The notes below the pieces were generated by a model. The model saw only the letters and a program-made list of their open reading frames with translations, was not told the DNA's origin and made no database searches. The position numbers and the translations under genes were made by a program. Below are positions 4,447 through 55,113 of a DNA stretch of 64,000 nt, piece by piece. Source of the stretch: Anaerovoracaceae bacterium (GTDB lineage Bacteria > Bacillota > Clostridia > Peptostreptococcales > Anaerovoracaceae); the NCBI GenBank assembly GCA_963678385.1, contig OY782829.1, positions 781,397 through 845,396 on the forward strand, given 5' to 3'. Positions within the stretch are counted from its first letter, which is position 1, and each line of letters starts with the position of its first letter.

Positions 4447-5319
4447 ATGGAAATCAATTGGTTCCCTTTGGTACTTATTTATATTGTAACGAATGCTACT
4501 TCAAAAATACTGCAGAAAATTATCGTCAGCAATGAAAAAGTCGACGAGATAGCCTTTAGCATCATATTCCTGTTCGCTCCGGGATTTTTAACATTGCCGT
4601 TAATTGTAATTCAACCGATCAGGCTGCCAACGCAGCCCGCAGCGTGGATCGCATTGTTTGTCTCCTGCATTGGCTATGCATGCTGCATGCTGCTATATTT
4701 TTATAGTATGAAGCGGATTGAAATCAGCCAGGTTGAGACAATTGGAACCACAAGAGCAATATGGATGATGGTCTCGGGGATCCTCTTTTTTAATGAAGCA
4801 ATAACCTTGAGCAAAATGATAGGAATTTGTCTTATTATGGCCGCGATCGTTACGGTATATGCCCGGAAAGAGTCCCTGATCGGTTTGGGGAAAACCCATT
4901 TTGCTGTGTTGCTGTATGCTATTATCATAAGCAATTGTTATGCCTTGGATAAATATGCCTTGGGCTATTTTTCACTCGTATTCTTTCAAGTGCTGATTTT
5001 TACAGTGCCCGCTTGTATTACAGCGATCTTTTTCCCGGCTGCGGTGAAAAATATTATTCCCATGTTTAAAACAAAACGAAATACCATTTTTCTGCTGACA
5101 TGTTTTTTATTCCAGGCGGTTTCGGTATTGGCCCTTTATCGGGCCTATCAAATGGGCGGACAATTATCAATTGTCGGGCCGATCGCACAAACAACCACTT
5201 TGGTTACTATTACTGCAGGAATAGTGATCTTGCATGAATATTGGAATTTGAAGAGAAAAATAGCGGGTATTTTACTGGCTTTACTGGGCGTAATTTTCTT
5301 ACGGTTTTTATCATTTTAA
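4447..5319 (+). CDS. EamA/DMT family transporter
   Basis: About 10 TM in two repeats, GILFFNEAIT..KMIGI and GIVILHE...KIAGILL motifs. Confidence 0.88.
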   Translation: MEINWFPLVLIYIVTNATSKILQKIIVSNEKVDEIAFSIIFLFAPGFLTLPLIVIQPIRLPTQPAAWIALFVSCIGYACCMLLYFYSMKRIEISQVETIGTTRAIWMMVSGILFFNEAITLSKMIGICLIMAAIVTVYARKESLIGLGKTHFAVLLYAIIISNCYALDKYALGYFSLVFFQVLIFTVPACITAIFFPAAVKNIIPMFKTKRNTIFLLTCFLFQAVSVLALYRAYQMGGQLSIVGPIAQTTTLVTITAGIVILHEYWNLKRKIAGILLALLGVIFLRFLSF

Positions 5320-5337
5320 AGATATGGAGGGACAGCT

Positions 5338-5679
5338 TTGAACATACAGATATTCGGAAAGTCAAAATGCTTTGATACAAAGAAAGCGGAGCGGTACTTT
5401 AAAGAACGCGGGATCAAATATCAGCTCATTGATGTTACGCAAAAAGGAATGAGCAGAGGTGAATTTAACAGTGTGAAGCAGGCAATCGGCGGAGTTGACG
5501 ACCTGATCGATCAGAACTGTAAGGATAAACAATTGCTGGGGCTGGTCAGGTATCTGAGAGAGGAAGATAAAGATGAGAAAATTCTCGAAAACCCCAAGCT
5601 GATCAAGACGCCGGTCGTTCGTAACGGGAATAAAGCAACGGTTGGTTATTGCGCGGATGTATGGAAAAGCTGGGAATAG
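5338..5679 (+). CDS. ArsC/Spx family thioredoxin-fold protein
   Basis: KCFDTKKAERYFKE and ENPKLIKTPVV motifs. Confidence 0.85.
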   Translation: MNIQIFGKSKCFDTKKAERYFKERGIKYQLIDVTQKGMSRGEFNSVKQAIGGVDDLIDQNCKDKQLLGLVRYLREEDKDEKILENPKLIKTPVVRNGNKATVGYCADVWKSWE

Positions 5680-5720
5680 GGAGACGAAATCTCCGGATTG
5701 GAATTAAAGGGGTAAAAATT

Positions 5721-6311
5721 ATGAACAGGGTATTATTTAAAAATCGTTTGGAGTTCAGAGAATGGCTCACGGAAAATACGCTTTCCGATGAGGGAATCTG
5801 GCTCATATTTAACAAAAAAGGCAACCCGGAAACACTAACAGCAAATGATGCGCTTGAAGAAGCGTTATGCTTTGGATGGATCGACGGCCAAATACAGAGC
5901 ATTGATGAAAATTCATATCTCAAATACTTCAAACAGCGCAGCAAAACAAGCAATTGGTCGGAAAAGAACAAAAACCTTGTTGAAAAACTTGAAGCACAGG
6001 GGCTTATGACCGAATTCGGAAAGGCAAAGATTGAAATTGCTAAATCAAAAGGATGCTGGAACGTTCCAAAGCGTGAACCGCTTACAGTTGAACAATTGCA
6101 ACAATTTGAGGATATGCTGAAATCCCATGAAACAGCTTATGCGAACTTTATAAAAATGCCGCGTTCGGCCCGCGGGGCATACGCCACTTCATATTTTTTC
6201 GGCGCAAAGACTGAGGAAGGAAAACAAAAAAGACTAAATAAGATTATCGAGCGTTTAAATTTAAATTTGAATCCAATGGAAAGCATGAAAAAGAAAGCGG
6301 ATGCGCGTTAA
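5721..6311 (+). CDS. YdeI/OmpD-associated family protein
   Basis: EFREWL, EEALCFGWIDGQ, R.K.SNWSEKNK motifs; start moved to ATG 5721. Confidence 0.85.
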   Translation: MNRVLFKNRLEFREWLTENTLSDEGIWLIFNKKGNPETLTANDALEEALCFGWIDGQIQSIDENSYLKYFKQRSKTSNWSEKNKNLVEKLEAQGLMTEFGKAKIEIAKSKGCWNVPKREPLTVEQLQQFEDMLKSHETAYANFIKMPRSARGAYATSYFFGAKTEEGKQKRLNKIIERLNLNLNPMESMKKKADAR

Positions 6312-6362
6312 GACCTCGATATGGTATAATCTAATGAAAATAGCCTACAGACGCACTAATGA

Positions 6363-8852
6363 TTGGAGTATTTCATCTTGCCAAATATGATTCTCAATAC
6401 GAAAGCATTATATTTTAATACCAAAATACAGAATAGTCTCAGCATGCTGCCCGATTACCCCTGTACGCTTATCCAGGCACCGATGGGATACGGCAAAACT
6501 ACAGCAGTTAAAAATCTCATGTCCTCCCTTGAAGCGGATGTGATATGGCAAAGCGTCTATGACCAGGGCGACGCTGAATTCTGGGCCGGGTTCTGCCAGG
6601 CCATATCCAGGATCGACGAAGGCTGCGGTAATCGTTTGAAGAAAATCGGCATACCAAAAGAGAGCCTGATGAAACGCGAAGCCATGTCATTGCTTGAACA
6701 ACTGCATCTGCGGAAAAGGACATTTCTCGTAATTGATGATTATCATTTTGTAAAAACTCCAGAGGTCGATGACTTTCTGGAATTATTTGTCCGCAATATC
6801 CCGGATGAGCTGCATTTGATCATTCTCTCGAGGACGTCCGTTTTCAAGAGCAACAGCGAATTGCAGTTGAAGGGGATCGTCAATCAGATCGGCGTCCAGG
6901 CGCTGCAATTCTCACCTTCTGATATTAAAGAGTACTATTCCCTTTGCGGAATCAAAGTCAACGAAGAAGAACTGTCAGAAATATACAGCCGCACCGAGGG
7001 GTGGATCTCCGCCCTGTATTTGCTCGCGCGGGAATATGAACAACACGGAGCTTTTGTTCTGACGAAAAGTATATCGGAGTTGATTTATCATGCGGTATAC
7101 GAACCGCTGGATGAGGATGTAAAAGCCTTCTTAATGGCCGTATGTCATTTTGATCAGTTCGATCTGAAGCAGGGTGAGTACATGTGGCGCCAGAATGCCG
7201 GGCAATTGCTGGAAAGGCTGATGGAGCGAAATGCATTTATCACCTTTGATCCGGAATGCGGAGGCTATACCTTCCACAACATCTTCTCTTCCTGTCTCAG
7301 GGAGCAGTTTCGTTTGCTCGCAGAAAATAGAAAAAGAGAAATTTGGCATAGAATGGGCGAATTATATCTGAAAAACAAGGAATACCTGCTTTCCATGAGG
7401 AGCTTCGGCAAAGCAGAGGACTATGACGGTTTCCTGACCGCCTTGGAACAAGACAAGGGAGACAGCATTTTTTTCGAACAAAAAGAGCTTTTTATCAAAT
7501 ACTACGATAAGTGTCCGCCCGAAGTGAAAAGAGAGCATCCCGTTGCGATTTTAGTCTATGGAATAATCATGCTGGTCAATTTCAGTGAGTTGGCGTTGTT
7601 TGAAGCAGCTTGTGGAGAGTTCCTGTGGTGCCTTGAAAGCAATCCGGAGCTTGATGCGGAGGAAAAGGACCAGTTGATGGGTGAGTACGAACTAATGCTT
7701 GGTGTTGCAGCCTTCAATGATATGTTTGCAATGGGTGAGCATTTTGCGAAAGCGGAATCACTTCTGAATTCCCCGCCGAAATCCCTCAGCAGCAACAACA
7801 GCTGGACCTTTGGTTCGCCTTCCGTCTTATGTTTGTATCACAGGGAAGCAGGCGCTTTAAAAAATACGATACAATATTATCAAAGCACTCCAAACTATAG
7901 TGCCAGTACCGGCGGACATGGAAACGGCGGAAGCAATCTCATGGCGGCGGAATGGCAATATCATATCGGCGCATTTGAAAACTCCGAGATCCTGACCTAT
8001 AAAGCGATCACTGAGGCGAGAGCAAGTGATCAGAATTTGGATATCGTTCTTTGCGCAAATTTCCTGCTGATGAGGCTGGCTCTGCTGAAAGGCGATTTTC
8101 CTCAGGCCCGGTCATTGCTGCTGCAGATGCGCAAGGAAATAAAAGAAAACCAGGTCTATACGCTGATCTATACCATCGAACTGTGTGACTCGTATCTCCA
8201 TGCCTGCCTTGGCCAGGCTGACAACATCTCGGAATGGCTTATTGAGGAAGAATATTTGAAGAATATGTTTCCCCCGAGTATCGCCTTTGCCAATATTGTT
8301 TTGGGAAAAACGCTGCTGGCACAGAGAAAGGCAGCCAAGCTTCTGGGGCTGTCTGGAGAATTCCTTCAGCAGGCTTCTGTTTTTCCCAACCTGCTGGCGT
8401 CGATCTATACGGAAATCTATGCAGCGGCTGCAAACTGCCAGCTGTCCCGGACGAACGCAGGCGTTAAGGCTCTGAAACGATCGATTGATATGGCTGCGCC
8501 CGATGGTCTCATCATGCCGTTTGTGGAGAATGCGGACGGACTTGAGCGTCTGTTTGATCTTGTGGACCGGGAAGAAATGTACGCGGGGTTTATCAAAGAC
8601 GTCAAGAAAACCGCCAGCCAATACCGTGCGGCTATCGATCAGATCAACCGCGAGCATTTTATGCGAAAGCTCCCCAGACTTACGGCACGGGAAAAGGAAG
8701 TCGCATTGCTTGTCATAGACGGTTTGAACAATAAAGAGATCGGCAGCGCTTTATACATATCGCCGAACACCGTAAAACGCGAATTGAAAAGCATTTTTAT
8801 CAAGCTTGGCATCAACTCCCGGGTACTTCTTAAAAAGGATATGTTCCTTTAA
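6363..8852 (+). CDS. MalT-like large LuxR-family transcriptional regulator
   Basis: Walker A APMGYGKTT, LVIDDYH, TEGWISAL, helical middle region, C-terminal LTAREKEV...NKEIG..LYISPNTVK HTH; exact start uncertain (6378 or 6387 possible). Confidence 0.9.
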   Translation: MEYFILPNMILNTKALYFNTKIQNSLSMLPDYPCTLIQAPMGYGKTTAVKNLMSSLEADVIWQSVYDQGDAEFWAGFCQAISRIDEGCGNRLKKIGIPKESLMKREAMSLLEQLHLRKRTFLVIDDYHFVKTPEVDDFLELFVRNIPDELHLIILSRTSVFKSNSELQLKGIVNQIGVQALQFSPSDIKEYYSLCGIKVNEEELSEIYSRTEGWISALYLLAREYEQHGAFVLTKSISELIYHAVYEPLDEDVKAFLMAVCHFDQFDLKQGEYMWRQNAGQLLERLMERNAFITFDPECGGYTFHNIFSSCLREQFRLLAENRKREIWHRMGELYLKNKEYLLSMRSFGKAEDYDGFLTALEQDKGDSIFFEQKELFIKYYDKCPPEVKREHPVAILVYGIIMLVNFSELALFEAACGEFLWCLESNPELDAEEKDQLMGEYELMLGVAAFNDMFAMGEHFAKAESLLNSPPKSLSSNNSWTFGSPSVLCLYHREAGALKNTIQYYQSTPNYSASTGGHGNGGSNLMAAEWQYHIGAFENSEILTYKAITEARASDQNLDIVLCANFLLMRLALLKGDFPQARSLLLQMRKEIKENQVYTLIYTIELCDSYLHACLGQADNISEWLIEEEYLKNMFPPSIAFANIVLGKTLLAQRKAAKLLGLSGEFLQQASVFPNLLASIYTEIYAAAANCQLSRTNAGVKALKRSIDMAAPDGLIMPFVENADGLERLFDLVDREEMYAGFIKDVKKTASQYRAAIDQINREHFMRKLPRLTAREKEVALLVIDGLNNKEIGSALYISPNTVKRELKSIFIKLGINSRVLLKKDMFL

Positions 8853-8864
8853 CTGATAAAATTA

Positions 8865-8908
8865 TGACCCACTGGGTAATAGCCGGTCATTATGATCCGC
8901 CTTACACT
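8865..8908 (+). promoter_or_regulatory. Operator palindrome + promoter for the DUF2442 gene
   Basis: tgaccca-c-tgggtaa, with TACACT -10 starting 24 bp after the palindrome end. Confidence 0.65.
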
Positions 8909-8930
8909 TAAAGTAAGGCGGATTTTTTAT
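8895..8930 (+). terminator. Terminator of the regulator gene
   Basis: atccgccttac...gtaaggcggat followed by T run. Confidence 0.8.
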
Positions 8931-8949
8931 TGTCGGAAGGAGTTTTCAC

Positions 8950-9186
8950 ATGCCTATCATCACAAGCGTCCAGCCCATGAGTAATTTCAAGATCAAAGTA
9001 AAGTTCAACAACGGAACGGTACTGACGCTTGATATGAAGTATAAATTGAAAACGATCCGGTTTCAGCAGCTGCGGGACAAGGGGATTTTTTGCAGTGCGA
9101 TCACGGATGGCTACAGTATACGGTGGAATGAATTCGTTGAAATATCGGTAACAGAAATATTTGAAATGGCCCAAATGAATATGTAA
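8950..9186 (+). CDS. DUF2442-like small protein
   Basis: ITSVQP..NFKIKVKFNNG...DMK...F..L....F......DGYSIRW pattern. Confidence 0.7.
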   Translation: MPIITSVQPMSNFKIKVKFNNGTVLTLDMKYKLKTIRFQQLRDKGIFCSAITDGYSIRWNEFVEISVTEIFEMAQMNM

Positions 9187-9206
9187 TCGCGAAACGTGTC
9201 GAATTT

Positions 9207-9250
9207 TTACCCAGTGGGTAATTGTAACGGCTTATTAACCACCATACAAT
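9207..9250 (+). promoter_or_regulatory. Operator palindrome + promoter for the SLH protein gene
   Basis: ttaccca-g-tgggtaa abutting TTGTAA-17 bp-TACAAT. Confidence 0.72.
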
Positions 9251-9299
9251 TTTGTAAAATAGATTTTATTTGAATTTAATTAAAGGAGCGGAATTATTT

Positions 9300-12200
9300 A
9301 TGAGTAAAGTGAAAAGAAAAATCCTATCGGTACTCCTGGCGCTTGCAATGATTGCAGGCATGTTGCCGGCAGGAATGATAGAGGCCCATGCCTTTACCGG
9401 AACATGGGCGGATCACGCTGCAAGCGGTTTTGCCGTTGGCGACGGGACCTCAGGGAACCCGTACCAGATCTCTTCGGCGGCAGAGTTGGCTCATCTGGCA
9501 ACATTGGTAAACAGCGGTACCGACACATCGGGAAAGTATTATAAGCTGATGGCTGACATAGACGTCAATGATTATGTATGGGAACCGATCGGGTATCGTT
9601 CAAAGTGGCAAGGCGGGGATTATTCATTTAAAGGGAATTTTGAAGGCAACGGCTACTGTATAAAAAGGGTACATTTCGGCGGAGGAGCCGCTTCGCCCAA
9701 TGAGAATTACTCCTATGGGGGATTGTTTGGACAGACAGACGGAGCTGTGATCAAAAATCTGGGAATCGACACCGGTACCTCAGGGAACGGAATGAGTCTG
9801 GAAGGAATGCATGACGCCTTCCTGGGCGCTCTTGTCGGATGTGCAAACAACACAACGATCACAAACTGCTATTCCACAGGCGATAATGCAATTATCATCG
9901 GGCATAACAGTTCATCAAGCTATTCAACTGATGTTTCAAGCCAAAAACCCGCCGTCGGAGGTCTGGTGGGTGTTGCATCAGGCGGCACCAAAATTGACCG
10001 GTGCCATTCGGACGTTAAGGTCGTTATAGCTTATTTTTCGGATGCGGGAGGTTTGGTTGGACGTATCGCGGAATCTACCGTTAAAAACAGCTACTCTGTT
10101 TCTTCGGCGGGGTCTGCCGCCAGTCGGGCAGTCTCTATCAATTACAACATGAAAACCGATAACGCAATACAACCGTATGTCGGAGGTCTGGTAGGTAATT
10201 GCGGCACATTCGGTAAGATTGAGAACTGTTATACCACCCGTAACATTTATTTGATCGGAAGTGGAGCTACTCCGAGTTTCGCGATTCGTATCGGCGGCTT
10301 TGTCGGGTACAATTCCTATGGCACAATCATGAATTGTTTTGCTGCAGCAGAGACGATGAATATACAAAATTCAAATACAGACGCTAAAATCGGCGGTTTT
10401 GCAGGAGAAATCACATACCTGTCAACGATTTACAATTCATATTACAATAGCAGTATTTATACTTCTCCCTTCGGAACGAACACCGGAGCTTATTCGGCGG
10501 CAGTTCAGCTTACCGATGCTCAAATGAAGGGCGAAGCGAAGTCGATAGAGTACTATACTTCCTATACAAACAGCACAACAAACACGATAGGCGGTACCGC
10601 CTCCTCTGTCATCGATGCGCTTAATCTCGGCCGACCTGCGGGAGACGTCTTATATTCGTGGCAGGCCGACAGCTCGTCGGCAAACAACGGATATCCGTTG
10701 TTTTATACCGGATCGACCTCATCGATTTCACTGAAAAATAAGACTGTTGATTATAACGGCTCGGCCGTGGCATACACCTCGGCCGACATCGCATCGCTAA
10801 GCGGATCCAGCGGAACTTTGAGCTATAAATACTATTCTGACGCTGGCTGCAGTACAGAAATTGCTGCCCCGAGCAATGCCGGGACGTATTATGTAAAAGC
10901 GACGGTTGCAGCGGACAGTATTTATAGCAGTGCTGAATCCTCAGCGGCAACACTGACGATATCGACTGTACCGGTAACTGGCATCACCGGAGTACCAACA
11001 AGTGCAACGGCGGGCACGGACCTGACACTTTCCGGAACCGTAAATCCCGGAACTGCTACGAATAAAACCATAACCTGGACTGTAAAGAACGCCGGAGGAA
11101 CCGGCGCAACGATCAGCGGTGATACACTTTCCGCCAGCGCCGCGGGGACTGTTACAGTCACTGCGACCATCACGAACGGAACAGCAGTCGGCACAAACTA
11201 TACGCAGGATTTTGACATTACAGTAAGCATGCCGTTCGTGCCGGTGACGGGTATCACGGGAGTATCGACCGCGATGACGGCCGGCACCCCGCTGACGCTC
11301 TCCGGTACTGTGGGTCCTTCTGGTGCTACGAATAAAACCATAACCTGGACTGTAAAGAACGCCGGAGGAACCGGCGCAACGATCAGCGGTGATACACTTT
11401 CCGCCAGCGCCGCGGGGACTGTTACAGTCACTGCGACCATCACGAACGGAACAGCAGTCGGCACAAACTATACGCAGGATTTTGACATTACAGTAAGCAT
11501 GCCGTTCGTGCCGGTGACGGGTATCACGGGAGTATCGACCGCGATGACGGCCGGCACCCCGCTGACGCTCTCCGGTACTGTGGGTCCTTCTGGTGCTACG
11601 AATAAAACCATAACCTGGACTGTAAAGAACGCCGGAGGAACCGGCGCAACGATCAGCGGTGATACACTTTCCGCCAGCGCCGCGGGGACTGTTACAGTCA
11701 CTGCGACCATCACGAACGGAACAGCAGTCGGCACAAACTATACGCAGGATTTTGACATTACAGTAAGCATGCCGTTCGTGCCGGTGACGGGTATCACGGG
11801 AGTATCGACCGCGATGACGGCCGGCACCCCGCTGACGCTCTCCGGTACTGTGGGTCCTTCTGGTGCTACGAATAAAACCATAACCTGGACTGTAAAGAAC
11901 GCCGGAGGAACCGGCGCAACGATCAGCGGTGATACACTTTCCGCCAGCGCCGCGGGGACTGTTACAGTCACAGCGACCATTACGAACGGAACGGCAGTCG
12001 GCACAAACTATACCGAGGACTTTAACATTACAGTAAGCATGCCGTTCGTGCCGGTGACGGGTATCACGGGAGTATCGACCGCGATGACGGCCGGCACCCC
12101 GCTGACGCTCTCCGGTACTGTGGGTCCTTCTGGTGCTACGAATAAAACCATAACCTGGACTGTAAAGAACGCCGGAGGAACCGGCGCAACGATCAGCGGA

Positions 12201-13916
12201 AGCACGCTTTCCGCTGTCAGTGCGGGCACCGTTACCGTCACTGCGACCATTACAAACGGAACGGCAGTCGGCACAAACTATACCGAGGACTTTACTATAG
12301 CGGTAAGTACGACACCTCCTGCGGATAAAATCCTGATAAGTATTAACACCCCGACCGCCATAACCGGCCTGAACAACGGTACGGCGAAAACCACCTCTGC
12401 GTTGGGCCTGCCCTCTTCGGTGACACTGAACACTGACAACGGATATGTCAGCGCCAGTGTGACTTGGGATGTAGCCTCCTGTGCTTACAATGCAGCCTCG
12501 ACCAGCGCACAGACATTCACTGTCAGCGGTACGGCCACTCTGCCGGCAGGTGTGGTAAACACAAACAGCATTTCCCTAAACACCAGTATTAGTGTGACAG
12601 TCAACATGGCTTCCGGCGGTAGCGGCGGAGGCGGCGGTTCCAATGGTGGCGGCGGTTCCAATGGTGGCGGTGGAGGCGGAGGCGGCACTCCGACAACGAG
12701 CGGCAGCAGCGCTACCAAAGTCATGGTTGACGGAGGCACAGTCACAGCGGCTCAGACATTTTCAGCGACCACGGGGTCAGACGGTATGGTGGCAGCCAGT
12801 GTAACCAAGGATCAGATTGCAGGGATGGTAAAAGCAGCCGGCGAAAAAGCGCAGGGTCTGAATACTCAAACATCACTGGAAATAACGGTTGATTCCGGCA
12901 ATGCCGCGACCGGCGTATCTGTGACCATCAACCAGGGTGCGGCATCTACGTTGACCAATGGTGTATCCGCCTTGACGATCTCATCGCCCATTGTTAAGGT
13001 AACATTTGATGATAAAGCTTTGGATGCAATCAACAAAAATACCGCCGGAGACATCACTGTTACGGCGCGTAAGCCGGCTGACACCGTACTATCCGACGAG
13101 GATAAAGCAATCATAGGTAACAGACCGGTATATGATCTTAAGGTATCCAATGGCGGCACGGCAATTTCGACATTCGGTGGCGGTACTGCAACAGTAAGCG
13201 TTCCATATAAGCACGCCGCAGGCGAAGACGTCAACAAAATAGTCGTTTACTATATTTCAGGCAGCGGTAAGCTTGTTGTGGTTCCGGACTGCTCCTATGA
13301 CGCTTCCAGCGGAACGGTGACTTTTAAGACGACACATTTTTCCTCCTACGCTGTAGCTTATAACAACGTCAGCTTCACAGATGTATCCGGCTGGTATGCG
13401 GATTATGTGAGCTATCTCGCTGCGCGGGGCATCATAAACGGCGCAGGCGACGAGAAATTCAGCCCGGGCAACAACATAACAAGAGCTGAATTTGTAACGA
13501 TACTTGCAAAGCTTTCCGGCAACGATCTAAGCAGTTATACAACTTCCGCTTTCGGCGATGTAGCGGCGAACGCCTGGTATTCCGCTGCAGTACAGTGGGC
13601 ATATGAAAACGGTATCGCGTCCGGCAACAATGGTAATTTCGGTCCCAATGCGAAGATTACCCGCGAGCAGATGGCGGCTATGCTGTATAACTACGCCAAA
13701 TACATGGGGATTGACGTTTCCGGTGTGGGAATGTCCCAACAGAAATTCTCTGACGCCGCAAGCATTTCAAAATGGGCCGCAAGTCCGGTTCAATGGGCTG
13801 TCAGCAGCGGCATCGTTTCCGGCAACAGCAACGGTACCTTTACTCCAAATGCGAATGCCACGCGGGGCCAGACTGCAAAAATGATTGCAGTTCTCATGCA
13901 GGGCACGATAAAATAA
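9300..13916 (+). CDS. Large secreted SLH-anchored surface protein (GLUG-type repeats, MBG-like domain, five Ig-like repeats, three SLH domains)
   Basis: Signal peptide, GDGTSGNPYQI, repeated VGGLVG, Gly-rich linker, SLH motifs FSPGNNITRAEF / FGPNAKITREQM / FTPNANATRGQ. Confidence 0.9.
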   Translation: MSKVKRKILSVLLALAMIAGMLPAGMIEAHAFTGTWADHAASGFAVGDGTSGNPYQISSAAELAHLATLVNSGTDTSGKYYKLMADIDVNDYVWEPIGYRSKWQGGDYSFKGNFEGNGYCIKRVHFGGGAASPNENYSYGGLFGQTDGAVIKNLGIDTGTSGNGMSLEGMHDAFLGALVGCANNTTITNCYSTGDNAIIIGHNSSSSYSTDVSSQKPAVGGLVGVASGGTKIDRCHSDVKVVIAYFSDAGGLVGRIAESTVKNSYSVSSAGSAASRAVSINYNMKTDNAIQPYVGGLVGNCGTFGKIENCYTTRNIYLIGSGATPSFAIRIGGFVGYNSYGTIMNCFAAAETMNIQNSNTDAKIGGFAGEITYLSTIYNSYYNSSIYTSPFGTNTGAYSAAVQLTDAQMKGEAKSIEYYTSYTNSTTNTIGGTASSVIDALNLGRPAGDVLYSWQADSSSANNGYPLFYTGSTSSISLKNKTVDYNGSAVAYTSADIASLSGSSGTLSYKYYSDAGCSTEIAAPSNAGTYYVKATVAADSIYSSAESSAATLTISTVPVTGITGVPTSATAGTDLTLSGTVNPGTATNKTITWTVKNAGGTGATISGDTLSASAAGTVTVTATITNGTAVGTNYTQDFDITVSMPFVPVTGITGVSTAMTAGTPLTLSGTVGPSGATNKTITWTVKNAGGTGATISGDTLSASAAGTVTVTATITNGTAVGTNYTQDFDITVSMPFVPVTGITGVSTAMTAGTPLTLSGTVGPSGATNKTITWTVKNAGGTGATISGDTLSASAAGTVTVTATITNGTAVGTNYTQDFDITVSMPFVPVTGITGVSTAMTAGTPLTLSGTVGPSGATNKTITWTVKNAGGTGATISGDTLSASAAGTVTVTATITNGTAVGTNYTEDFNITVSMPFVPVTGITGVSTAMTAGTPLTLSGTVGPSGATNKTITWTVKNAGGTGATISGSTLSAVSAGTVTVTATITNGTAVGTNYTEDFTIAVSTTPPADKILISINTPTAITGLNNGTAKTTSALGLPSSVTLNTDNGYVSASVTWDVASCAYNAASTSAQTFTVSGTATLPAGVVNTNSISLNTSISVTVNMASGGSGGGGGSNGGGGSNGGGGGGGGTPTTSGSSATKVMVDGGTVTAAQTFSATTGSDGMVAASVTKDQIAGMVKAAGEKAQGLNTQTSLEITVDSGNAATGVSVTINQGAASTLTNGVSALTISSPIVKVTFDDKALDAINKNTAGDITVTARKPADTVLSDEDKAIIGNRPVYDLKVSNGGTAISTFGGGTATVSVPYKHAAGEDVNKIVVYYISGSGKLVVVPDCSYDASSGTVTFKTTHFSSYAVAYNNVSFTDVSGWYADYVSYLAARGIINGAGDEKFSPGNNITRAEFVTILAKLSGNDLSSYTTSAFGDVAANAWYSAAVQWAYENGIASGNNGNFGPNAKITREQMAAMLYNYAKYMGIDVSGVGMSQQKFSDAASISKWAASPVQWAVSSGIVSGNSNGTFTPNANATRGQTAKMIAVLMQGTIK
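10968..12306 (+). repeat. Five tandem 270-bp (90-aa) Ig-like units
   Basis: taacctggac recurs at 11071, 11341, 11611, 11881, 12151; central units are nucleotide-identical over long stretches. Confidence 0.95.
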
Positions 13917-13945: not shown

Positions 13946-13985
13946 AAAACATATGAGAGGTCATAATGGCCTCTCATATGTTTTT
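13946..13985 (+). terminator. Terminator after SLH gene
   Basis: aaaacatatgagagg / cctctcatatgtttt. Confidence 0.85.
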
Positions 13986-54720: not shown

Positions 54721-55113
54721 ATGGAGATCAGGAAATACACTGAGTTTGACACGGCGAAGCTGTTTGATATGATGATGGAGGAGGGCGCGGATTGGGAGTG
54801 CTATTGGGGAGAAGCCGGGGCGGAAAGGTATAAAGCGTCGTTGGCAAGTTCTTCGACCTATGTGGCATATGAGGGCGGTTCCTTGTGCGGTTATTTGCGA
54901 TTTAAGGAGGACAATGGTTTCGGCATCTTCGTATACGACCTTCTGGTCACGAAATCCTGCCGCGGACGCGGGATCGGCAAGAAGCTGATCGAGCAGGTTA
55001 GTTCCGATTATCCGGATGAGGATACCTATGTAATGAGCGGCGCAGACGGGTATTATGAAAAACTTGGATACAGCCGGGAAGGCTCGATCTTTAAGGTGAT
55101 ACCCCGTGGGTAA
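54721..55113 (+). CDS. GNAT acetyltransferase
   Basis: LLV...CRGRGIGKKLI, YYEKLGY. Confidence 0.88.
   Translation: MEIRKYTEFDTAKLFDMMMEEGADWECYWGEAGAERYKASLASSSTYVAYEGGSLCGYLRFKEDNGFGIFVYDLLVTKSCRGRGIGKKLIEQVSSDYPDEDTYVMSGADGYYEKLGYSREGSIFKVIPRG

Follow-up and report, generated by a model that had tools for sequence, protein, structure and literature searches.

A MalT-like regulator gene with two palindrome/-10 modules, the -10 of one lying within its terminator, as candidate switch for a DUF2442 gene and a giant SLH surface protein gene in an Anaerovoracaceae bacterium

Many anaerobic Firmicutes have giant SLH-anchored proteins, but what turns on their expression is, to our knowledge, mostly unexplained. 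One such gene lies in the stretch of DNA analyzed here (64,000 nucleotides of Anaerovoracaceae bacterium, GenBank assembly GCA_963678385.1, contig OY782829.1, positions 781,397 to 845,396; hereafter the window), where it is preceded by a small DUF2442 gene and by the gene of a large regulator (Table 1). Does this regulator control the two genes that follow it, and if so, by what means? We observed how the locus is built, that relatives conserve this layout, and that protein and DNA co-vary; from this we infer binding, start sites, gating by a ligand, and whether the regulator activates or represses. On these grounds we consider it quite probable that the regulator is a dedicated, cluster-situated STAND/LuxR activator with a class-II-like promoter insulated by a terminator.

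Table 1. Positions of the features of the regulator/DUF2442/SLH unit in the window.
Feature	Position	Strand	Remarks
Probable regulator promoter	6322-6330	+	Extended -10 TGgTATAAT; consensus resemblance only
STAND/LAL-type regulator (AAA+ NTPase, putative TPR_MalT-like sensor, C-terminal LuxR/GerE HTH)	6363-8852	+	Pfam; longest ORF, 829 aa
Operator 1, palindrome TGACCCACTGGGTAA	8865-8879	+	Centre 8872, ~-43 from the predicted P1 start; sequence read
Intrinsic terminator of the regulator	8894-8930 (hairpin 8894-8924)	+	12-bp stem, 7-nt loop, T-run; terminator scan
P1 -10	8903-8908		TACACT
DUF2442-fold protein, 78 aa, no signal peptide	8950-9186	+	RBS GGAAGGAG at 8935-8942
Operator 2, palindrome TTACCCAGTGGGTAA	9207-9221	+	Centre 9214; sequence read
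P2 -35 slot	9222-9227		TTGTAA
P2 -10	9245-9250	+	TACAAT; promoter scan
Giant secreted surface protein, ~1538 aa	9300-13916	+	From ATG 9300; ORF open from 9270; RBS and ATG read
Terminator closing the unit	13946-13984	+	18-bp stem; terminator scan

In Pfam searches the regulator matched GerE (PF00196; 4e-12, 46 bits against a cut-off of 23.5, residues 773-821), AAA_22 (4.7e-07), and TPR_MalT (2.8e-10, residues 460-731), the last with 40.4 bits, under the Pfam cut-off of 45. Its best match in NCBIfam was the MalT equivalog (NF003420; 3.3e-49), best along residues 18-375, with a score of 167.7 bits that does not reach the cut-off of 537. The Walker A motif GxGKTT (G42, G44, K45, T46) and D125 of Walker B are invariant among 19 homologues, and this conservation is the observed part of a putative gating by ATP and a ligand. 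The true start of the protein is probably TTG 6378 or ATG 6387, downstream of GGAG at 6365-6368. No ACCC-N3-GGGT core was found upstream of the regulator gene in the window, and autoregulation was set aside on this ground.

The architecture (NTPase, putative helical/TPR sensor, and C-terminal LuxR/GerE HTH in ~830-900 aa, with intact Walker A and B) resembles that of MalT of Escherichia coli, and action at promoters without a good -35 would be a further common trait. MalT is activated by maltotriose and ATP, and its binding sites, the MalT boxes, are asymmetric and stand in repeated arrays. In contrast, the operator in the window is a single short palindrome at ~-43, of the NarL/LuxR type; the label "MalT-like" of the first-pass annotation thus holds for the protein architecture, but not for the operator. 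The predicted targets differ as well, being DUF2442 and an SLH surface protein instead of sugar catabolism, and Pfam found no maltose genes in the cassette.

Both palindromes to which the first-pass annotation had pointed are present, and the -10 boxes of P1 and P2 start, as it had claimed, exactly 24 nt past the last base of the 15-bp palindrome, which is equivalent to 26 nt after its 11-bp core and places each -10 31 nt from the operator centre. With up to one mismatch, the window has three occurrences of ACCCASTGGGT where 0.53 would be expected, and none of 100 shuffles reached three. The exact sequence ACCCANTGGGT has four copies in the 3.70-Mb genome, two of which are operators 1 and 2, 342 bp apart. 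A genome-wide scan for the palindrome with a spaced -10, suggested earlier, gave 18 exact ACCC-N3-GGGT cores; TAnnnT at +25 to +27 directed into a gene was found at operators 1 and 2 only, and the sole additional core/-10 match among the 18 is operator 1 reversed, into the 3' end of the regulator gene. The core at window position 55101 (ACCCCGTGGGT) has no correctly spaced -10. From these matches the regulon in the source genome is predicted to consist of P1 and P2 alone. A wider regulon of 56 one-mismatch cores with a -10 at +25 to +27 was considered and rejected: these appear random, many are intragenic, and none carries CCAC-NN-TACAAT, the family consensus. P1 itself deviates from this consensus in its -10 and in the upstream CCGC, and may therefore be weak.

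A scan of genome contigs confirmed at least 526 relatives. We compared the window with 80 loci from named Bacillota and analyzed 39 modules, assigning the orientation of sites by the -10 and the T-run. Regulators sharing 25-84% identity, from Anaerovoracaceae to Desulfosporosinus, Syntrophomonas, and Negativicutes, have a common layout, in which the regulator stop codon is followed by the palindrome (~10-40 bp past the stop), a -10 in a terminator hairpin, a gene for a ~76-aa DUF2442-fold protein, and usually a gene for a giant SLH-anchored protein. Culturable carriers of the cassette include Sinanaerobacter chloroacetimidivorans BAD-6, Anaerovorax odorimutans DSM 5092, and Anaerotignum propionicum. 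Co-occurrence in homologous loci, another proposed check, was borne out: TAnnnT stands 25-27 nt after the core, mostly at exactly 26, in 54 of the 57 exact palindromes of the window and the 80 loci (related loci share ancestry, and this and the following counts are of non-independent events), and the spacing is constant despite differing sequence between core and -10. The -10 reads TACAAT in 28/39 modules, and the arms of the palindrome vary symmetrically around an inner ACCC/GGGT that is invariant in all 39. A DUF2442-like homologue lies immediately downstream of the regulator in 48/70 loci; the gene after it usually encodes more than 900 aa, and SLH domains were found in all seven giant genes sampled and, at the same position, in further loci. 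The orthologue at 84% identity, the closest among the matches listed, has two sites as well.

The first promoter had been described as embedded in the terminator of the regulator, and this embedding proved to be a trait of the family. In the window the terminator hairpin folds with -19.2 kcal/mol (z = -6.7), is followed by the T-run tail TTTTTTAT, and holds the P1 -10 within its 5' arm and loop; among the 39 modules, double changes of the compensatory kind occur at 13 of the 19 predicted pairs of its stem. P1 is predicted to start near 8915-8917, in the 3' arm, so that its transcripts would lack the hairpin. The P2 region, with a predicted start at about 9256-9258, has no hairpin (-0.8 kcal/mol, z = +0.6). 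The orthologous locus of Sinanaerobacter (L057), whose second site lies at +373 from the regulator stop, retains ATCCACCATACAAT..GTATGGTGGAT at the position of the P2 hairpin, of which the 3' arm has decayed in the window; with this hairpin lost, P1 transcripts could continue into the giant gene. Secondary sites without a hairpin in related loci retain the -10. Among known RNA elements searched for in 8700-9400 only PyrR matched, and it was ruled out by its score of 24.8 bits against a threshold of 54.

Which protein would bind these sites? The varying residue of the recognition helix aligns with Val189 of NarL, which contacts bases, and NarL activates yeaR from -43.5 (PMC10853779). Regulators with the helix NTVK-T have tC-ACCC flanks (16/16), those with NTVK-M/F have cT-ACCC (10/10), and those with NTVK-K have gT-ACCC (4/5), while the window and an Anaerotignum relative, with NTVK-R/H, have t(T/G)-ACCC..GGGTAA; regulators with AE(V/I)TVRK have TATC-N6-GATA in place of the ACCC palindrome. 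The sites could nevertheless be genuine operators of another LuxR-type factor, whose gene lies elsewhere; the regulator next to them would then have a different target. The source genome encodes further GerE-domain proteins, and in a genome of the same genus (G009) the core and -10 module is found ahead of Nif11-type peptide genes, beside a 129-aa stand-alone GerE protein; cross-talk may occur in genomes with several LuxR-type proteins. However, the adjacency of regulator and site is kept across Bacillota classes, helix and half-site co-vary, and the other GerE proteins of the source genome are merely 39-50% identical to the regulator over the HTH, all of which makes a foreign binder very unlikely.

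It is also conceivable that the regulator is a repressor, with the palindrome over the -35 blocking RNA polymerase until a ligand frees the protein. Some LuxR/GerE-type proteins do repress, the operator overlaps the -35 slot, and the P2 -35 is of moderate quality. On the other hand, MalT and LAL proteins are activators, and family members generally have a poor -35 slot, with a mean of 3.2/6 matches to TTGACA against ~2.6 for shuffled spacers, so that the promoters should be weak without an activator. In addition, a spacing kept with base-pair precision, and at the activating position of NarL (-43.5; PMC10853779), is typical of activation, and we consider repression unlikely. The class II-like spacing claimed earlier is conserved in relatives together with a poor -35 slot, which points to activation. 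Hairpins in RNA or DNA, serving as stabilizers of the 3' end of the regulator mRNA or as half of a two-hairpin terminator, would agree with the stem-like symmetry of the co-varying arms and with the place of operator 1 in the 3' UTR of the regulator just ahead of the terminator. We give hardly any weight to this explanation, because the palindromes fold weakly (-4.6 and -5.9 kcal/mol, z ~-1), a stem does not need the invariant ACCC/GGGT, the distance to the -10 is constant, copies of the element are also found at secondary sites with no regulator gene before them, and its flanking bases change together with an HTH residue that contacts bases. As for the match between the two sites being a presently functionless leftover of local duplication, there are bases in common outside the palindrome (TTAT, CC-CC, TACA-T), and site 2 resembles a decayed hairpin module. 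Duplication accounts for origin but not for conservation: the orthologue retains both sites, and site 2 has kept its palindrome and -10 intact while the dispensable 3' arm decayed, which leaves a functionless remnant highly improbable.

If the regulator is a dedicated activator, as we prefer to read the locus, it would be expressed from its own promoter, with its transcript ending at the terminator hairpin, at about 8925-8930. Once activated, presumably like MalT by ATP and a ligand sensed by the TPR domain, its HTH dimer would bind (t)ACCC-N3-GGGT(a), centred ~43 bp upstream of the two starts. There the bound dimer would substitute for the missing -35 and recruit the housekeeping RNA polymerase in a class-II-like manner, from the position that NarL occupies at yeaR. 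Transcription from P1 would start within the 3' arm and so evade the terminator, whereas read-through from the regulator would be blocked, so that the target should be off unless the activator acts. P1 would then yield the cytoplasmic DUF2442-fold protein, and P2, together with read-through from P1, the giant SLH-anchored, adhesin-like surface protein.

Cluster-situated activators of the LuxR family are well known as a kind, but this cassette is apparently undescribed. Our search of the literature on DUF2442, STAND/LuxR/LAL/MalT regulators, SLH, and terminator/promoter overlap found no account of it; in one paper both an SLH protein and a LuxR regulator come up, but in unrelated contexts (PMC9275234). 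The LAL family shares the large ATP-binding N-terminus, the LuxR HTH, and a gene located beside apparently dedicated targets (here two sites in 3.7 Mb). LAL regulators belong to actinomycete biosynthetic clusters, whereas the unit in the window has a Bacillota host and a cell-surface payload, and neither a -10 in a terminator nor a conserved DUF2442 partner was found for LAL systems in the literature search. With NarL/LuxR/TraR-type dimers the window shares a predicted HTH-dimer palindrome centred 31 nt before the -10, at ~-43, and with NarL the recognition helix TVK-x-x-x-K, which contains the equivalents of Lys188, Val189, and Lys192. The input differs, being a STAND NTPase with a putative TPR domain and not a receiver or acyl-homoserine-lactone-binding domain. 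The lux box, located near -42.5, is 20 bp long, against 15-17 bp for sites of the window type.

The DUF2442 gene and the giant SLH gene named in the first-pass annotation were both confirmed by Pfam. The 78-aa protein passed the DUF2442 threshold (PF10387; 31.9 bits against a cut-off of 23.9), and its AlphaFold model (pLDDT 92.9) has the same fold as the N-terminal domain of NE0471 (2AUW; Foldseek TM 0.80) and resembles 3K8R (TM 0.68). Single and profile sequence searches of the PDB gave nothing significant for this protein, these two structures being found by the fold search alone; neither structure carries a functional annotation, and NCBIfam has no name for the protein. It differs from the known examples in being stand-alone and encoded by the first gene of a predicted activator-dependent operon beside a STAND/LuxR regulator. 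The literature mentions of DUF2442 that we found concern toxin-antitoxin-like or phage-defence contexts. Because DUF2442 travels with the regulator and not with a particular payload, the protein most likely works together with the regulator or feeds back on it, an assignment that we make with low confidence.

More tentatively, we propose that the unit may belong to a so far undescribed family of plug-in cassettes across Bacillota (Clostridia, Desulfitobacteriia, Syntrophomonadia, and Negativicutes), each with an activator whose operator dialect is set by the Val189-equivalent residue, a terminator-built -10 that fully insulates the target, a DUF2442 feedback partner, and one giant SLH adhesin. 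If this is true, a genome that has several cassettes would use them side by side, each switching a different surface protein in response to its own ligand. Gram-positive bacteria would then have their equivalent of the pairing of regulator and locus in Bacteroides PULs or of the sigmaI/RsgI pairs of Acetivibrio thermocellus. The analysis itself gives a testable rule (a dedicated, presumably ATP-dependent regulator with a single 15-bp operator at -43 and a -10 within a terminator), from which regulator-target pairs can be predicted for hundreds of genomes, as can the amino acid that sets operator specificity. DUF2442, which is widespread and uncharacterized, gains a defined genetic context, and a terminator-embedded promoter would be a compact route to a tight off state. 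The co-varying pairs of helix and operator could provide orthogonal inducible parts for anaerobes in which genetic work is difficult.

In the giant protein, Pfam found Glug, Big_2-type repeats, and three C-terminal SLH domains (3.3e-42, 142.6 bits), and its N-terminus, MSKVKRKILSVLLALAMIAGMLPAGMIEAHA, was recognized by eye as a signal peptide. A tandem repeat of 270 bp, present in 4.6 copies that are 97% identical, extends from 11054 to 12283 within the gene.

The palindromes and the 24-nt distance from each to its -10, which the first-pass annotation had read from the sequence, were confirmed at the positions listed in the table, and its assignment of the two neighboring genes is backed by Pfam domains. 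Judging from the sequence, the regulator probably starts at TTG 6378 or ATG 6387, and the giant gene at ATG 9300.

Features of the regulator, DUF2442 and SLH surface protein locus (positions in the window)
Feature	Position	Strand	Basis
Regulator's own extended -10, TGgTATAAT	6322-6330	+	sequence read
Regulator gene	6363-8852	+	Pfam: AAA_22, TPR_MalT (below cut-off), GerE/LuxR HTH
Palindrome site 1, TGACCCACTGGGTAA	8865-8879	+	15-mer read in sequence
Terminator hairpin after regulator	8894-8924	+	terminator scan; 12-bp stem, T-run
-10 of P1, TACACT	8903-8908	+	starts 24 nt past palindrome of site 1
Small-protein gene	8950-9186	+	Pfam: DUF2442
Palindrome site 2, TTACCCAGTGGGTAA	9207-9221	+	15-mer read in sequence
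-10 of P2, TACAAT	9245-9250	+	starts 24 nt past palindrome of site 2
Giant gene	9270-13916	+	Pfam: Glug, Big_2, three SLH domains
Strong terminator past giant gene	13946-13984	+	terminator scan

The best named relative of the regulator is MalT, with a score far under the equivalog cut-off, and the operator in the window is no MalT box. Walker A (G42, G44, K45, and T46) and Walker B (D125) residues are invariant among 19 homologues; by analogy with its family, the regulator is presumably ATP dependent and ligand gated. At least 526 relatives were confirmed by a scan of genome contigs. The genus and family of this genome contain full-length homologues (25-42% identity), and others were found in Anaerotignum, Mobilitalea, Petroclostridium, Pelotomaculum, Desulfosporosinus, Syntrophomonas, Papillibacter, Sporomusa, and other Negativicutes. 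Outside the window, this genome encodes a second such STAND-like paralogue, with an 874-aa frame and 25% identity across residues 18-354 (G000:C1:1406016-1407053, L002).

Among the 57 exact ACCC-N3-GGGT cores in the window and 80 named loci, 54 have TAnnnT 25-27 nt past the core, on one side and mostly at exactly 26 nt. In an alignment of 39 modules, ACCC and GGGT never vary, changes at the palindrome's three outer positions are symmetric, and in 13 of 19 predicted pairs both bases have changed with pairing preserved. TACAAT serves as the -10 in 28 modules, and the best TTGACA match at 16-18-bp spacing averages 3.2/6. This weak -35, the conserved spacing and a palindrome centre at about -43 support the class II-like geometry proposed earlier; taking the -10 as -12 to -7, the centre is comparable to the -43.5 position from which a NarL dimer activates yeaR (PMC10853779). 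A tCCAC-NN element 5' of the -10 (about -19 to -13; alignment A3 columns 36-42; window 8896-8902 and 9238-9244) is conserved well past pairing needs and falls outside the usual register of a TGn extended -10; an additional contact for the regulator or sigma could explain it, as could an mRNA 5'-end constraint.

ACCCASTGGGT with up to one mismatch has 3 matches in the 64-kb window against 0.53 expected. In the complete 3.70-Mb genome, ACCCANTGGGT occurs exactly in four places, two of which are sites 1 and 2, and these two are the only ones of 18 exact cores with a gene-directed TAnnnT at +25 to +27. One-mismatch cores with this spacing appear random genome-wide, and the predicted regulon is therefore local. 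Neither the genome-wide core scan nor reading of the region revealed an ACCC-N3-GGGT palindrome upstream of the regulator gene.

As annotated, TACACT of P1 is embedded in the regulator's terminator (-19.2 kcal/mol, z = -6.7), where it occupies the 5' arm and loop. The start predicted from consensus, ~7 nt past the -10, falls in the 3' arm, so that P1 transcripts would be without the hairpin. Site 2 lacks such a structure (-0.8 kcal/mol), and the terminator scan found no terminator between the DUF2442 and giant genes. Sinanaerobacter chloroacetimidivorans BAD-6, with a regulator of 84% identity, likewise carries two sites and retains an intact hairpin at the second, which suggests that P2, its start likewise predicted from consensus, is a decayed copy of a full module. 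Palindrome and -10 persist without the hairpin at site 2 and at three sites in related loci (L067_11330, L071_3439, and L086_10150); these are secondary sites not behind a regulator, or sites where read-through is tolerated. TAnnnT is thus conserved in its own right, beyond mere stem sequence.

For this Anaerovoracaceae genome, the relatives compared include BAD-6 and Anaerovorax odorimutans DSM 5092. The arrangement recurs in homologous loci: the regulator stop is followed by the palindrome, ~14 variable, often A-rich bases, a G+C-rich hairpin with a T-run and (t)CCAC-NN-TACAAT as its 5' arm, an RBS, and a gene of ~76 aa. Searching with an HMM of the small proteins placed this gene downstream of the regulator at 48 of the 70 usable loci, in most cases <150 bp away. 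Owing to kinship among the loci, all such counts overstate independence. The next gene usually begins 2-50 nt on and often exceeds 900 aa. All seven giant genes sampled carry SLH domains at the C-terminal end, with differing N-terminal parts (BspA-type LRR, Flg_new, He_PIG, and aBig_2), and same-genus loci likewise have SLH-ending giant genes with varied N-termini. Within the window's giant gene, a 270-bp (90-aa, Big_2-like) unit is repeated 4.6 times in tandem (11054-12283); the 97% identity of the copies, without indels, indicates recent expansion and a stalk that is likely to vary in length.

The small protein lacks a signal peptide. Its AlphaFold model, built with 22 homologues (pLDDT 92.9), matched in Foldseek the NE0471 N-terminal domain (2AUW, TM 0.80) and 3K8R, both uncharacterized. 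The small protein accompanies the regulator even where payloads differ, and for this reason we tentatively suggest that it may act as a partner of the regulator or modulate it by feedback.

All regulators with ACCC-N3-GGGT sites share the recognition helix NTVK-x-x-L-K, in which residue x changes together with the half-site flank: T with tC-ACCC (16/16 loci), M or F with cT-ACCC (10/10), K with gT-ACCC (4/5), and R or H with t(T/G)-ACCC...GGGTAA (window and the 64% relative from Anaerotignum). The BAD-6 orthologue likewise has R but AGCC as its first core. In more distant paralogues, helix AE(V/I)TVRK goes with TATC-N6-GATA instead, and further helices pair with AGTAGCC-N4-GGCTACT or TTTTTGGC-N4-GCCAAAAA. 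By hand count, palindrome centre and -10 are 31-32 nt apart in most alternative operator classes, except about 24.5 nt in the TTTTTGGC class. NarL contacts bases through Lys188, Val189, and Lys192 (PMC10853779), and residue x aligns with Val189. Such co-variation is what one would expect if the regulator bound the palindrome next to its gene.

We propose constitutive production of the regulator, with its transcript terminated at the hairpin. Upon a signal, an HTH dimer would bind at -43 of both P1 and P2, recruiting RNA polymerase to these promoters without a -35; P1 transcripts, beginning within the terminator 3' arm, would escape termination, and the output would be the DUF2442 protein together with the giant SLH-anchored protein. 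Repression by the regulator, palindromes acting as an RNA hairpin, use of the sites by a foreign regulator, and a pair of sites left as a duplication relic all fit less well than activation, each being a poorer match to the co-variation and spacing data.

As a type of system, cluster-situated LuxR-family activators acting at class-II-like sites are already known; the conserved tripartite cassette, insulated promoter and operator code are new variants. In the full-text literature, incomplete for subscription journals, we found no account of the regulator/DUF2442/SLH cassette, of DUF2442 as a partner for LuxR-type regulators, or of a terminator-embedded -10 in this regulator family.

Six Negativicutes loci (L081, L089, L092, L083, L125, and L094, including Sporomusa) have TATAC-TTTC-GTATA or similar in the first ~40 nt past the regulator stop, the helix (A/E)E(V/I/A/T)TVKK, and, after the palindrome, a hairpin whose 5' arm holds TATGAT or TATCAT; by sequence, the design is unchanged and the operator different. 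In a same-genus locus (L027, G002:C1:3225000-3244999), a ACCCCAAGGGG module with TACAAT at +26 (oriented position 7318) precedes a short SLH ORF and the regulator, and TCGAT-TG-ATCGA lies ahead of the hairpin downstream of the regulator, after 10630; this is possibly a rearranged or autoregulated variant. In another same-genus genome, G009 (L137, G009:C1:1290000-1302000, 4700-9800; L138, 996-1985), a core with TATAAT at +26 precedes four members of an array of about six tandem genes, each encoding ~120-130 aa, and three of these sites are spaced 856 bp apart. Five of the genes carry a Nif11 leader domain, like RiPP precursors, and a 129-aa stand-alone GerE/LuxR protein adjoins another such gene; the ACCC-N3-GGGT dialect is therefore not confined to STAND regulators or SLH payloads.
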